From an uncultured Selenomonadaceae bacterium (GTDB lineage Bacteria > Bacillota > Negativicutes > Selenomonadales > Selenomonadaceae), in contig CAJOHG010000013.1 of the NCBI GenBank assembly GCA_905234395.1, positions 5,253-69,252 of the forward strand: a DNA stretch of 64,000 bases, in the 5' to 3' direction. Under the pieces are notes generated by a model. That model was given only the letters and a program-made list of their open reading frames with translations, made no database searches and had not been told where the DNA came from. The translations under genes and the position numbers were made by a program. Shown here piece by piece: positions 22,698 to 26,554 of the stretch. The stretch's first letter is position 1. Each line of letters opens with the position of its first letter.

Positions 22698-24899
22698 TTG
22701 ATGCTAATCGCCAAAGTTTGCGTGAACGTTACGAGCAACGCTGTCGACAAAAATTATACATACCGCGTGCCCGACGACTTGAAGTTTTTAACGGCAGGTT
22801 GGCGCGTAATAATTCCGTTTGGAAGGCAAAAAACCGATGGATTTGTGATAAGCGTTCACGAAATCGACGACTCGACGACATTTGAATTCACGCTGAAAGA
22901 TATTGCAGGAGTTTTTGACGATGAACCGTGGTTTACGCCCACAATGATGAATTCAGCGCGATGGCTGTCGGAATTTTACATGTGTCCGTTGTCGCAGACG
23001 ATGAGTTTGTTTATGCCGGGTCAGCACGTGAAAAAAATTTCCGCACGCTTTGAACGCGTCTTTAAACTCGCGGGCACCTTCGACGAAAAAAAATTCTCCA
23101 ACAAACGCTCACAGCTGAAACTTTTGCGACTGCTTGAAGAGCGCGGCGAATTGTCTTCCGCTGAACTCAAGGAGCACAAAATTTTAACGTCGACGGCGAA
23201 AATTTTAATCGATGCGGGCTTAATCACGGTTGAACAGCGAAGAATTTTGCGCGACAGCTATTCACAGATAAAGTCGTTGCCGAGAGAATTCGATTTGACG
23301 GCAGAACAAGCCGCCGCGATTCAAGCGATCGAAAAATTTTTGTCCGCGCAGAAATTTCAAGGCGTCCTGCTTAACGGCGTGACAGGTTCCGGCAAAACTC
23401 AAGTTTACGTCGAGCTGACAAAAATAACCCGGCAACTTGGTCGGCGAGTGATAATTCTCGTGCCGGAGATCGCGTTGACGGGTCAAGCAGTTGCAAATTT
23501 CAAAGCACATTTCGCGGACGTGGCGGTAATTCACAGCAGATTGAGCATTGCCGAACGAAACGACACTTTTTACAGGATTCGTAGCGGTGAAATTGGAATT
23601 GTCATTGGTGCACGCTCCGCATTGTTCACGCCGATTGAAAATGTCGGCTTGATTGTCGTTGATGAAGAACAGGACACGTCTTATAAGCAGGACAAAAATC
23701 CGCCGCGCTATCACGCACGCATTGTCGCCGAAGAATTTGCCAAATTTCACGACGCGGTTATAGTTTTCGGTTCAGCGACGCCGAGCCTGGAAAATTTTTA
23801 TCGCGCACTTAACGGCGAGCTGATTCTATTAAAAATGCCGCATCGTGTGCTGGATAATCCGTTGCCCGAAGTAAAATGCGTCGACATGCGCGGAGAACTC
23901 AAAGCCGGCAACAAATCGGTCTTGAGTCGTGAATTGACGGAGCTGCTTAGAAAAACGGTTGCAGAAAATCAGCAGGCGATTTTGCTTTTGAATCGGCGCG
24001 GCTGGTCAACGGTTGTGATGTGTCGTTCATGCGGCGCGGTGTCCACTTGTCCCGATTGCGGCTTGCCAATGACTTATCACGCGGACGGGAAATTGCGTTG
24101 TCACCGTTGCGAAGTCGAATCAATTCCGCCGACGATTTGTCCGACTTGCGGCAGTAAGCACATAAAATTTTTGGGCACGGGAACGGAGAAACTTGAACGC
24201 GCGTTGAAAACTTCGTTGCCCGAAGCAAGAGTTTTGCGCATGGACAGAGATTCGACCGGCGGAAAATTCGGGCACCAAAAAATTCTGGACGCTTTTGCCG
24301 CTCACGAATACGATATTCTTTTCGGAACGCAGATGGTTGCAAAAGGTCACGACATCAGCGGCGTTACGACGGTCGGCATTTTGAGTGCGGACGCGGCGTT
24401 GAGCTTTTCAAACTTTCGGGCGGCGGAAACGTGTTTTGAACTGATAACTCAAGCGGCGGGTCGTGCGGGACGTGCTGATTTGCCGGGCAAAGTCATCGTG
24501 CAAGCTTACAACGTCGACGCGGCGGCTATCAGATTCGGTTGCGAGCAGGACTACGAAAAATTTTGCGCGAGTGAATTGCCGCAACGTGAAGAAGTTTTTT
24601 TTCCGCCGTTTTGCAGATTGGTCAAGCTTATTTTCACGGGCAAGGATGAACTTAAAACTAAAACTCGTGCCAAAGAAATTGCCAAAGCTTTCCGCGCCGA
24701 AGTCGTTCAAAATTCCCGCAAGCGTCAAGAAATTTTCGGTCCGATACCCGCCGCAATCGCTCACTTGCGCGAAAATTTCAGATTCGTTGTGCTGATTAAG
24801 TCGGAAGATTTATCGAGCGTCAGAAATTTTTTGCGTGCTCACGATTTGCACAGGCGCGACGACGTTCAGCTTGACATTGACCCGACGACTACCGATTGA
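22698..24899 (+). CDS. priA: Primosomal protein N' (replication restart helicase)
   Basis: 733 aa. Contains LLNGVTGSGKT, VVDEEQD and Cys4 zinc-binding CRSCG...CPDCG...CHRC...CPTCG. Confidence 0.92.
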   Translation: MMLIAKVCVNVTSNAVDKNYTYRVPDDLKFLTAGWRVIIPFGRQKTDGFVISVHEIDDSTTFEFTLKDIAGVFDDEPWFTPTMMNSARWLSEFYMCPLSQTMSLFMPGQHVKKISARFERVFKLAGTFDEKKFSNKRSQLKLLRLLEERGELSSAELKEHKILTSTAKILIDAGLITVEQRRILRDSYSQIKSLPREFDLTAEQAAAIQAIEKFLSAQKFQGVLLNGVTGSGKTQVYVELTKITRQLGRRVIILVPEIALTGQAVANFKAHFADVAVIHSRLSIAERNDTFYRIRSGEIGIVIGARSALFTPIENVGLIVVDEEQDTSYKQDKNPPRYHARIVAEEFAKFHDAVIVFGSATPSLENFYRALNGELILLKMPHRVLDNPLPEVKCVDMRGELKAGNKSVLSRELTELLRKTVAENQQAILLLNRRGWSTVVMCRSCGAVSTCPDCGLPMTYHADGKLRCHRCEVESIPPTICPTCGSKHIKFLGTGTEKLERALKTSLPEARVLRMDRDSTGGKFGHQKILDAFAAHEYDILFGTQMVAKGHDISGVTTVGILSADAALSFSNFRAAETCFELITQAAGRAGRADLPGKVIVQAYNVDAAAIRFGCEQDYEKFCASELPQREEVFFPPFCRLVKLIFTGKDELKTKTRAKEIAKAFRAEVVQNSRKRQEIFGPIPAAIAHLRENFRFVVLIKSEDLSSVRNFLRAHDLHRRDDVQLDIDPTTTD

Positions 24900-24939
24900 A
24901 CACTTGAAAAATTTTTCGTGCCGTGATATTATTCGCGCA

Positions 24940-25047
24940 GTCAATGAGACAAAACGAAAGGCAGGGCGTCGGATTTATCGCGTCGACTCCCTCCCGATTG
25001 ATAGAACTACGTTAATCCGTTAGAAGCCGCCCGCTAGCGGCTTTTTT
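24940..25047 (+). ncRNA. Candidate antisense/antitoxin sRNA convergent with the small ORF at 25054..25134
   Basis: A promoter TTGAAA (24904-24909)-N17-TATTAT (24927-24932) lies upstream, and no ORF follows. It ends at the shared hairpin 25023-25047. It contains the CU-rich CTCCCTCCC (24987-24995). Confidence 0.35.
25023..25047. terminator. Bidirectional terminator
   Basis: The stem AGCCGC/GCGGCT is followed by T6 on the + strand and preceded by an A-rich run. Confidence 0.7.
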
Positions 25048-25053
25048 CGTACC

Positions 25054-25134
25054 TTATTTATCCAGATACATGAGCAATGCCACGATGGTCTGAATCAAGT
25101 TGAGCACAAGCATCAACCAATCGAATTTATCCAT
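25054..25134 (-). CDS. 26-aa hydrophobic peptide, type I toxin-like (Hol-Tox-like)
   Basis: GGGGGTGA lies 4 nt before the ATG. The peptide is MDKFDWLMLVLNLIQTIVALLMYLDK. The 5' UTR hairpin CCTCTC-GAAAA-GAGAGG abuts the SD. A promoter CTGAAA (25225-25220)-N17-TATTAT (25202-25197) lies upstream. Confidence 0.5.
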   Translation of the reverse strand: MDKFDWLMLVLNLIQTIVALLMYLDK

Positions 25135-25264
25135 GACATCACCCCCCTCTCTTTTCGAGAGGAAGCCGAGCTACCTAGCCCTGTCTTTCGCACCGAATAA
25201 TATCACGTGTCAAAAATTTTTTCAGGATAATTTTCAGCCAGCGTCACTGTCGAGCGGCAGTGAT

Positions 25265-26176
25265 TTATTTTTTTTCAACGCCGTCAATGAACGCGAACAC
25301 TTTATCGAAATAAGCGGCGGGATTCGTGCTTTTGGCGTCAGCGTGACCGGCACCGGCAACGATAAATTTTTCCTTTGGAGCCGCGCAGACGTCGAACAAT
25401 CTGCTCATCATCGCGAAAGGAACAAGTCCGTCAGCGTCGCCGTGAATGAACAGCACGGGCACTTTGATTTTGTCGACAACTTCAATCGGTGCAGCGTCAG
25501 AAATTTTTATGCCGGTCTTGAGCTTGCAAACCAAATTCGCGCAAGGCATAACGGGATATTCAGGCAAACTAAAAATTTTTTCGAGTTGCGCGGTGAACAT
25601 CTCGTAAGCGGAAGTGTAGCCGCAATCTTCGACGACGGCAATCAAATTGGACGGTTCAAGCGCGGCAGTCAACATCACAGTTGCGGCACCCATTGACACG
25701 CCATGCAAGATAATTTCAGCGTCGGGATGAGCGTCGGAAATTTTTTTTGCCCAATCGAAAACATCACGACTTTCCAACGCACCCATCGTGATAAATTCGC
25801 CGTCACTCTTGCCGCTCGCACGCAGATCGGGAACTACGACATTCCAGCCGCGTTTGAGATATTCTTCAGCGTAATCGAAGGCAAAAGTTCCGTCGCGCCC
25901 GTAGCCGTGCACGAGAATCGCCCAACGATTTGACGGCTCGGCAGGTGAAAAATTCCACGCGTGAAGTTTGAGACCGTCGAAACTTTCAAGCGTCCATTCA
26001 TCGGCAGGATAATTCGGTGCGGGCGGAGCTTTCAAATTCGGGTCGGCAATGTTCGCGCAAGCTTTCGGCGGCGACAAATCCTCGCCACGGTGCAACGCGA
26101 AATCTACGAAATAATTTCCGACACCATAGCCCGCGCAGATTAGCAGAACAATCACCGCGATAAAAAATTTTTTCAT
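25265..26176 (-). CDS. Alpha/beta hydrolase with an N-terminal membrane anchor
   Basis: 303 aa. Contains HGYG, the nucleophile elbow GVSMGA, and IHGDAD. Confidence 0.8.
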   Translation of the reverse strand: MKKFFIAVIVLLICAGYGVGNYFVDFALHRGEDLSPPKACANIADPNLKAPPAPNYPADEWTLESFDGLKLHAWNFSPAEPSNRWAILVHGYGRDGTFAFDYAEEYLKRGWNVVVPDLRASGKSDGEFITMGALESRDVFDWAKKISDAHPDAEIILHGVSMGAATVMLTAALEPSNLIAVVEDCGYTSAYEMFTAQLEKIFSLPEYPVMPCANLVCKLKTGIKISDAAPIEVVDKIKVPVLFIHGDADGLVPFAMMSRLFDVCAAPKEKFIVAGAGHADAKSTNPAAYFDKVFAFIDGVEKK

Positions 26177-26307
26177 GACAACACCTTCTCAATATCGTTT
26201 TGTTCAACGATTGTCGTTTCAATATCGCCGTCGATTTTATCAACGTCAACTACGTAAGCCGTCTCGCCCGTCTTCAATAAAACTTTGTCGAATTCTTTTA
26301 TTTCCAA
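26173..26307 (-). CDS. Possible 44-aa protein (SH3-like/DUF4926-like pattern)
   Basis: A TTG start follows GAGG. The peptide is EIKEFDKVLLKTGETAYVVDVDKIDGDIETTIVEQNDIEKVLS. Its stop overlaps the hydrolase ATG (TCATGA). This is a weak call. Confidence 0.3.
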   Translation of the reverse strand: MEIKEFDKVLLKTGETAYVVDVDKIDGDIETTIVEQNDIEKVLS

Positions 26308-26417
26308 AGCGCAACCTCATAAAAATTTTTTTCATAATGACTCCTTGAATCAAATACGTAAGTTCAATACAACGCGAAAGGCGGAAGCTTTGAGCCTCCG
26401 CCTGAAAATGTCAGTGT

Positions 26418-26494
26418 TGGTCGGGATGACAGGACTTGAACCTGCGACCTCATCGTCCCGAACGATGCGCGCTACCAAACTGTGCTACATCCCG
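26418..26494 (-). tRNA. tRNA-Pro (anticodon CGG)
   Basis: The reverse complement is CGGGATGTAGCACAGTTTGGTAGCGCGCATCGTTCGGGACGATGAGGTCGCAGGTTCAAGTCCTGTCATCCCGACCA. An upstream TTGCAA-N17-TAAAAT and a downstream hairpin GGCGGAAGC/GCCTCCGCC are present. Confidence 0.9.
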
Positions 26495-26554
26495 AAAACG
26501 TTTGCAATTTTAGCAGATTGACTTTCAAATTGCAAGCGTTTTTTTATAGCAAAA

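Follow-up and report, generated by a model that had tools for sequence, protein, structure and literature searches.

Type I toxin-antitoxin systems are difficult to detect, and those described come mainly from Proteobacteria and monoderm Firmicutes. None of the papers listed in our literature searches connected such systems with Negativicutes, Selenomonas or Quinella. Here we describe a candidate module of this type in a 64,000-nt stretch of DNA (contig CAJOHG010000013.1, positions 5,253 to 69,252 of the forward strand; hereafter the window) from an uncultured Selenomonadaceae bacterium, whose genome comprises 2.83 Mb in 157 contigs. The module occupies window positions 24904-25225, a ~330 bp element in the short gap after priA, and pairs a minus-strand open reading frame (ORF) for a 26-residue hydrophobic peptide with a predicted gene for a small RNA (sRNA) that converges on it from the plus strand. 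A preliminary description of this DNA had proposed that the locus is type I toxin-antitoxin-like, and that interpretation is largely supported by the comparative sequence evidence presented below. We consider it fairly likely that the locus is a type I toxin-antitoxin-like module from a divergent, rumen-restricted branch of the Hol_Tox/TxpA superfamily, and we infer its transcription, repression and toxicity from its sequence.

Several described systems are close enough for comparison. In Bacillus subtilis, the TxpA/RatA and BsrG/SR4 pairs have 100-140 bp of complementarity that extends into the ORF, with antitoxins of 180-222 nt and toxins of 38-59 residues (PMC6562991). The holin-like toxins have been placed in an extended TxpA family, and for one member, EF3263 of E. 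faecalis, an sRNA of ~110 nt was detected that overlaps at the 3' end (Fozo et al. 2010, PMC2887945). In the database T1TAdb, Fst/RNAII and SprA1/SprA1AS represent antisense overlap that excludes the ORF, and type I toxin mRNAs characteristically have their Shine-Dalgarno sequestered by an anti-Shine-Dalgarno sequence (PMC8594479). The S. aureus antitoxin SprA2AS works via a non-overlapping 5' domain (PMC6393315).

The mechanism that we propose for the window locus combines features of this kind. The toxin mRNA would be built for poor translation, with its Shine-Dalgarno locked in a 9-bp hairpin and its AUG region paired with codons 17-21, and would be neutralised by the convergent sRNA of ~110 nt, which is predicted to have an extended -10 promoter of its own and to end at a strong terminator. 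Neutralisation could follow two routes: perfect pairing of the two RNAs for at least ~25 nt across the terminator that they share, outside the ORF, and pairing in trans by a non-overlapping 5' domain of the sRNA (CGUCGAC-N-CCUCUC) with the mRNA from the Shine-Dalgarno to the start codon. The second route would block ribosome loading and probably make a substrate for RNase III.

The predicted sRNA promoter (24904-24932, plus strand) lies directly 3' of the priA stop codon (24897-24899, plus strand) and consists of a -35 TTGAAA (24904-24909), a 17-nt spacer and a -10 TATTAT (24927-24932) extended by TG (24924-24925), with 10/12 matches in our promoter scan. The near-duplicate promoter that had been reported immediately after priA is, then, present. 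While the scan alone is not significant (3 sites vs. 1.5 +/- 1.3 expected), we judge the promoter elements real because their conservation across 38 unique diverged copies of the module is decisive. These 38 copies form what we term subfamily A, to which the window locus belongs, and a further 23 modules belong to a sister subfamily B. An extended -10, sigma-70-type sRNA promoter was found in 36/38 subfamily-A modules, vs. 0.5 expected from shuffles, and in 22/23 subfamily-B modules, vs. 0.2 expected. Similarly, a terminator with a GC stem and a T-run adjoins the toxin stop, 5 nt from the stop codon, in 36 of the 38 copies. In the window this hairpin (AGAAGCCGC / GCGGCUUUU; 25022-25047, both strands) was predicted by RNAfold at 25022-25045, followed by a T6 run in the plus direction only, which means that the earlier suggestion of a terminator shared by both strands holds for the hairpin itself and for the plus-direction U-run, but not toxin-ward, where there is no U-run. 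One pair of the terminator stem shows a compensatory change from CG to UA in 5/16 sequences.

With its 5' end placed from the -10 box and its 3' end from the U-run, the putative antitoxin sRNA is ~110 nt long (24939-25048, plus strand), which compares with a median predicted length of 106 nt across copies. Its fold has a minimum free energy of -34.3 kcal/mol (z = -2.1), and an Rfam scan (E <= 10) returned no family match for it. The preliminary description had called this transcript ORF-less and ~105 nt long, and we agree: the only ORFs here, 24835-25023 and 24923-25015, have their starts upstream of the point where transcription is predicted to begin, and a peptide-coding role for the plus-strand RNA was rejected. 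Applied to MAFFT alignments, RNAalifold recovered just three elements, namely the terminator, a single stem inside the sRNA and the hairpin that holds the Shine-Dalgarno of the peptide gene, and these showed little covariation.

Given that the element sits directly after the priA stop codon and that the promoter scan by itself is at chance level, the plus-strand sequences could be read as merely the terminator and 3' untranslated region (UTR) of priA, with no independent RNA and with the ORF and hairpins arising by chance. We regard this explanation as extremely improbable. The module was found downstream of priA in 0/19 relatives, so the plus-strand RNA is not a priA 3' UTR; moreover, the module and its promoter are conserved at unrelated chromosomal sites, and the ORF length and coding signature are kept in 38 copies. 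Together with the presence of promoter and terminator in 36/38 copies each, these observations support the assignment of the plus-strand RNA to a separate gene rather than to priA read-through.

On the minus strand, the predicted toxin promoter (25197-25225) has a -35 CTGAAA (25225-25220), a 17-nt spacer and a TG-extended -10 TATTAT (25202-25197), and it is kept as TTGAAA with TGnTATAT in 18/19 aligned copies. This promoter and that of the sRNA form a 31-nt inverted repeat with 84% complementarity, and the sequence that they have in common runs on from the promoters into both transcripts, where GAAAGGCAGGGC and GAAAGACAGGGC come after the twin promoters. Both 5' ends were expected to read GAAAG.CAGGGC, and in fact they do so as GAAAG[G/A]CAGGGC. 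The toxin mRNA leader, which had been put at ~55 nt, is ~56 nt long by its placement relative to the -10 box and by the conservation profile (25135-25190, minus strand; beginning CGAAAGACAGGGC). It is followed by the toxin-like ORF (25054-25134, minus strand; ATG at 25134, stop codon 25056-25054), whose 26-residue product, MDKFDWLMLVLNLIQTIVALLMYLDK, would be a membrane peptide made up of one hydrophobic helix behind a short, acidic N-terminus. The ORF is 24-26 residues long in 38/38 unique copies, with the peptide consensus MDKFDWLxLILSLIQTVLALLTFLK, a codon-position entropy of 0.57, 0.29 and 0.96 for positions 1, 2 and 3, respectively, and a pairwise ratio of nonsynonymous to synonymous substitution (dN/dS) of ~0.22. 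As the sRNA does not overlap the ORF, this constraint acts on the protein. We conclude from these signatures that the peptide gene is really coding.

The leader carries the first of two predicted locks on translation. Its Shine-Dalgarno, GGGGGGUGA, is held in a 9-bp hairpin, CUUCCUCUC-GAAAA-GAGAGGGGG (25139-25165, minus strand; RNAfold hairpin at 25165-25143), whose pairing is kept in 19/19 aligned leaders, where the C/U changes all still pair with G, and in which both partners of two base pairs differ between subfamilies A and B. A leader hairpin with a GAAAA loop had been noted previously; that hairpin stands, but it has 9 bp and sequesters the Shine-Dalgarno G-run instead of abutting the Shine-Dalgarno. 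The second lock may lie downstream. In the minimum free energy fold of the short toxin mRNA (z = -3.8), the stretch from the Shine-Dalgarno to the AUG, GGGUGAUGUCAUG, pairs with codons 17-21 (25075-25147, minus strand), which encode an Ala-Leu-Leu motif, and the same pairing is predicted in 34/38 subfamily-A modules. As the initiation region is invariant, this pairing is a prediction only; it could provide a second cis lock on translation and could also explain the conserved synonymous sites in TTGCTC.

The geometry of the locus sets how the two RNAs must meet. The sRNA ends at 25048, 5 nt beyond the toxin stop codon (25054-25056), without overlapping the ORF, and the two RNAs must consequently overlap across the terminator hairpin for at least ~25 nt outside the ORF. 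This confirms, by geometry over the shared terminator, the 3'-end overlap that had been proposed. In addition to this overlap, a segment of the sRNA (24968-24995, plus strand), identified by RNAduplex and by subfamily-level covariation, is complementary to the translation initiation region of the toxin mRNA. Within it, CGUCGACUCCCUCCC (24981-24995) is complementary to GAGAGGGGGGUGAUGU, which extends from the Shine-Dalgarno through the AUG, at 14/16 positions, and GUCGGAUUUAUC (24968-24979) is complementary to codons 2-5 as a 12-bp block in the window copy. A CU-rich motif able to pair with the toxin Shine-Dalgarno region had been described earlier, and that complementarity was borne out, although its extent had been underestimated at ~7 bp. 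The RNAduplex energy is -32.8 kcal/mol, vs. -18.5 +/- 2.7 kcal/mol for 300 dinucleotide shuffles (z = -5.2). Across 18 copies the duplex was stronger than the shuffle mean in 17 (z from -1.3 to -6.3), with one at background, and it was matched by no more than 5/300 shuffles in at least 14 of the 18. The predicted pairing always involves the same two elements, the RNA core CGUCGAC-N-CCUCUC and the Shine-Dalgarno-to-AUG stretch.

Comparison of the two subfamilies bears further on this pairing. From A to B, GAGAGG in the Shine-Dalgarno flank gives way to GGAAGG, CCUCUC in the cis arm of the leader to CUUCC and CCUCUC in the sRNA core to CCUUCC, and predicted pairing within a module's own subfamily was the stronger for 29/29 A-type and 12/13 B-type initiation regions. 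This between-subfamily covariation is support, although not proof, for the predicted pairing in trans. Subfamily B is found in the same genus and has peptides of 28 residues (e.g., MDFFDWLQFISVVGTFIIALLTYFNGKK) and the same locus design, sometimes in tandem with A-type modules. One such arrangement is locus L008 of relative G017 (C36:31856-35118), in which there are three tandem modules, one of subfamily A and two of subfamily B (28-residue B peptide, e.g., MDIFDWLQLFFTAGNFVLALIDYFNKRK), each with its own leader and convergent sRNA, and in which differences between the subfamilies in the anti-Shine-Dalgarno sequence are matched by differences in the Shine-Dalgarno flank.

The relationship of the window peptide to the holin-like toxins is distant. 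The genome has no match to the Pfam family PF16935 (Hol_Tox) at E <= 0.01, and the window peptide fails the gathering cut-off of that family (23.3 bits). The subfamily-B peptides score 14.2-19.7 bits, also below the cut-off, compared with 50.4 bits for the peptide of the Paenibacillus larvae plasmid pPLP2.1, our positive control, and with 39 and 34 bits for Hol_Tox loci in two other families of Negativicutes and 31 bits for one in a species of the genus itself (L154-L156). However, when 20 subfamily-A peptides were compared by hhalign with six Hol_Tox-type peptides (four above the Pfam cut-off, one at 20.1 bits and one not scored), the two sets aligned over 26/26 columns with no gaps at 96.2% probability (E = 2.6e-9), values that should be read with the caveat that these are short hydrophobic sequences. 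The suggestion that the peptide resembles the holin-like toxin family is therefore upheld as distant homology and does not extend to membership of Hol_Tox in Pfam. We place the window peptide on a divergent branch of the Hol_Tox/TxpA superfamily, outside the Pfam family as now defined.

Consistent with this placement, the resemblance to Hol_Tox takes in the peptide (25-28 residues, one transmembrane helix and a gapless end-to-end alignment, M-x-x-F/Y-[DEQ]-x-L ... ALLTY-x-K), the leader (an anti-Shine-Dalgarno hairpin, then GGGGGUGAUG), the convergent promoter and, as for EF3263, a convergent sRNA of ~110 nt ending at a hairpin just past the toxin stop. The layout of the module is shown by genuine Hol_Tox loci from P. 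larvae, from other Negativicutes and from one species of the genus. The differences are that the central F-G motif of the Hol_Tox family is replaced by L-I-Q-T in the window peptide, and that the window subfamily is confined to one rumen genus. In the P. larvae locus (L031; NZ_CP020329.1:27576-29056), the peptide METFQALQLMFLFGMFILALLTYIRKK is annotated as a "putative holin-like toxin". The hairpin of its leader is AUCCCCU-GGAAA-GGGGGUGAUG, the convergent promoter reads TTGAAT-17-TGATAAAAT, the terminator has U-runs both ways, and a 12-nt block, TAGGCGGTCGGC, is common to the leader and the antisense RNA in the same sense. In another genuine Hol_Tox locus, L155 (relative G055, from another family of Negativicutes), the convergent sRNA gene carries the toxin-direction terminator at its far (5') end, and an 11-nt block of the leader, AACGGUUAGCC, has a perfect complement in the toxin 3' UTR. 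A 5'-3' long-distance interaction like that of hok or aapA is thus suggested for L155.

The likeness between the two transcripts of the window locus extends well beyond their promoters. By local alignment, the 5' half of the sRNA (24956-24995, plus strand) duplicates the toxin leader in the same sense, as GAAAGGCAGGGC ... GUCGAC ... CUCCCUCCC, with z = 7.5 in the window copy. Among the 38 modules the same alignment had z > 2 in 36 (median 4.6) while the reverse-complement control stayed at background, and the aligned elements follow the order GGCAGGUC ... GUCGRC ... YCCUCUC. The copy in the sRNA includes the leader's own anti-Shine-Dalgarno arm. On this alignment evidence, the sRNA is a paralogue of the leader that is cut off just after the anti-Shine-Dalgarno arm and fused to a terminator. 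With its 5' domain being a same-sense duplicate of the leader, the sRNA would supply in trans the anti-Shine-Dalgarno element that the leader supplies in cis. The complementarity of the sRNA to the Shine-Dalgarno-AUG region is 14-16 nt, vs. ~10 nt for the leader arm, and the spacer from the Shine-Dalgarno to the AUG could serve as a toehold. We propose tentatively, as something that is possible but falls short of being probable, that the antitoxin sRNA originated through inverted duplication of the toxin promoter and leader and acts as a trans mimic of the cis anti-Shine-Dalgarno arm, with leader and sRNA co-evolving so that the sRNA of each subfamily fits the Shine-Dalgarno hairpin of that subfamily. 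A block of at least 11 nt is likewise common to leader and convergent RNA in the four genuine Hol_Tox loci that were inspected. As these loci, in other Negativicutes and on the Paenibacillus plasmid, have a leader block in common with their antisense RNA, an origin and action of this kind could be a general principle for the whole Hol_Tox/TxpA-like class.

The same similarity lends itself to a different explanation, namely that the twin ends mainly serve a 5'-3' long-distance helix in a long read-through toxin mRNA, as in hok or aapA1, with the sRNA pairing over its full length and leader mimicry a by-product. Because the shared terminator lacks a U-run toxin-ward, the toxin transcript could read through the whole sRNA gene and thereby gain a 3' UTR, antisense to the sRNA, that pairs with its own leader; the fold of such a 251-nt read-through RNA pairs leader nt 1-36 with nt 194-236 (duplex -48.8 kcal/mol; total minimum free energy -96.4 kcal/mol). 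This complementarity is family-wide, being the same signal as the leader/sRNA similarity. L155, with its leader/3' UTR complementarity and a strong toxin-direction terminator at the sRNA 5' end, fits this explanation, and interactions between 5' and 3' ends are known to be determinants in type I toxin mRNAs (PMC8594479). However, no conserved U-rich toxin-direction terminator was found past the sRNA gene among subfamily-A modules, the window copy having a candidate that is not conserved in other copies, and the P. larvae terminator, with its U-runs both ways, would stop the toxin mRNA before the shared motif. On balance we think it rather unlikely that a long-distance helix is the main role of the twin ends. 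Such a helix is also compatible with a trans-acting sRNA, and the trans-mimic and long-distance-helix readings are not mutually exclusive.

The module is present several times in this genome. Besides the window locus there are two further intact copies (C46:13115-13411 and C8:13803-14092; 80-82% identity over ~300 nt), giving three intact copies, and a decayed fourth (C1:29222-29560). In the decayed copy the toxin ATG is changed to ACG, a Trp codon (TGG) has become TGA and the leader is lost, but the sRNA promoter (TTGAAA ... TGATAAGAT) and the core GTCGACTTCCTCC are retained. It is, as far as can be judged from these changes, an orphan-antitoxin-like remnant, and a dead toxin beside a surviving sRNA is the decay pattern typical of toxin-antitoxin pairs. 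The intact copy on C8 (C8:13803-14295) has an sRNA promoter of its own that looks degenerate and, ~130 nt further upstream, a second sRNA promoter and 5' half that is 94% identical.

Outside this genome, a DNA search found the module in 17/37 genomes of the genus (rumen metagenome-assembled genomes of Selenomonadaceae/Quinella type), with up to five copies per genome, and in none of the 24 further families searched within the class. Scanning a single genome per species across 185,579 species for the pattern yielded 71 matches, of which those with a peptide ORF all came from rumen metagenome-assembled genomes labelled Selenomonadaceae, Selenomonadales or Quinella; the remaining matches were rejected as chance occurrences inside long unrelated ORFs. 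No match to the peptide was found in phage records by tblastn, and the pattern scan of viral contigs found no copy, its four matches all being chance occurrences in long unrelated ORFs. The other copies in the genome sit between unrelated housekeeping genes, in ordinary chromosomal flanks with no mobile-element context. The region after priA (window 24900-26500) is a synteny breakpoint in the genus, with different genes in nearly every relative, and as a result no "empty site" could be defined among the relatives. In the window, the neighbours of the module are an ORF resembling alpha/beta-hydrolases (25265-26176), a 44-residue ORF (26173-26307) and a tRNA-Pro(CGG) gene (26418-26494), all on the minus strand.

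An alternative is that the peptide is not toxic but a small membrane protein that, for example, modulates a membrane complex, with its synthesis tuned by cis and trans antisense RNA; the architecture would then resemble that of a type I pair without any toxin-antitoxin biology. Purifying selection at the observed dN/dS would fit any functional small protein, and the ordinary chromosomal flanks, together with the lack of copies in phage records and viral contigs, are in keeping with such a role. There is also a precedent in YhzE-2, a small peptide paired with an sRNA that proved non-toxic (PMC2887945). Set against this are the variable copy number, the patchy distribution within the genus (17/37) and the absence of synteny; the toxin-dead copy with a surviving sRNA, which is typical of selfish toxin-antitoxin modules; the homology to the Hol_Tox/TxpA family, some members of which are toxic on overproduction; and the predicted locking of translation in two ways, which suggests a dangerous product. 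We consider a purely non-toxic role improbable, and the type I toxin-antitoxin-like interpretation to be the better description of the locus.

Nevertheless, several observations, the YhzE-2 precedent among them, count against that interpretation or parts of it. The window peptide had no match in Pfam (E <= 10) and none in NCBIfam. The Shine-Dalgarno is already sequestered in cis, and the need for an anti-Shine-Dalgarno element in trans is not self-evident. Since the terminator lacks a U-run toxin-ward, the ~25-nt overlap at the 3' ends is a minimum only. The trans pairing rests on conservation and, in effect, on one or two between-subfamily covariation events, and such covariation could also come from gene conversion between leader and sRNA. 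Finally, within subfamily A, where the initiation region is almost invariant, cognate pairs of sRNA and initiation region were no better than non-cognate pairs (p = 0.46). We have accordingly dropped the idea of copy-specific recognition in trans, and the subfamily-A copies could cross-regulate each other.

If the module is what we believe it to be, it represents a well-supported and expanded family in uncultured rumen Selenomonadaceae that is missed by current protein and RNA models, although it would not be a new kind of system. If the leader-duplicate reading is true, type I toxin-antitoxin systems would extend to the diderm Firmicutes, and the locus would illustrate a concrete and testable route for the birth of an RNA antitoxin, in which a cis-acting translational lock is duplicated and then expressed in trans. 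The arrangement also offers a search rule for more loci, an inverted repeat of promoter and leader flanking a mini-ORF. Candidate roles for the module include the stabilising of genomic regions, phage defence and persistence.

TxpA/RatA and BsrG/SR4 had been named as the analogues of the window locus. As in those pairs, the toxin mRNA and the sRNA are convergent with a 3' overlap and the Shine-Dalgarno is partly sequestered, and RNase III cleavage is the expected fate of the duplex. In contrast, our module is guaranteed an overlap of ~25 nt that leaves the ORF free, and it combines a predicted sRNA of ~110 nt with a putative toxin of 26 residues; the ORF overlap and complementarity of at least ~100 bp that characterise the TxpA/RatA-type organisation are not found. 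The comparison with the Bacillus pairs holds for the convergent 3' overlap, but SprA1/SprA1AS and Fst/RNAII are mechanistically closer. In these systems, and in SprA2/SprA2AS, the antisense RNA lies on the 3' side with an overlap that leaves out the ORF, and a 5' antitoxin domain pairs in trans with the ribosome-binding site and start codon, as is predicted from complementarity for the window locus. The likeness to Fst and PepA is one of organisation and not of peptide homology, as 0/19 family members scanned match an Fst-type Pfam or NCBIfam family.

The repeats of the par locus, which encodes Fst/RNAII, are direct in the DNA and hence complementary in the RNAs. The module differs in this respect, as its trans domain is a same-sense copy of the leader that derives from an inverted DNA repeat. 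By its geometry and complementarity, however, it shares the type of organisation seen in Fst/RNAII and SprA1/SprA1AS, with an ORF-free 3' overlap and a 5' domain directed against the ribosome-binding site, and at the sequence level it has the generic features of type I systems, namely a coding hydrophobic peptide, a separate sRNA gene, base-pairing between the two RNAs and sequestration of the Shine-Dalgarno.

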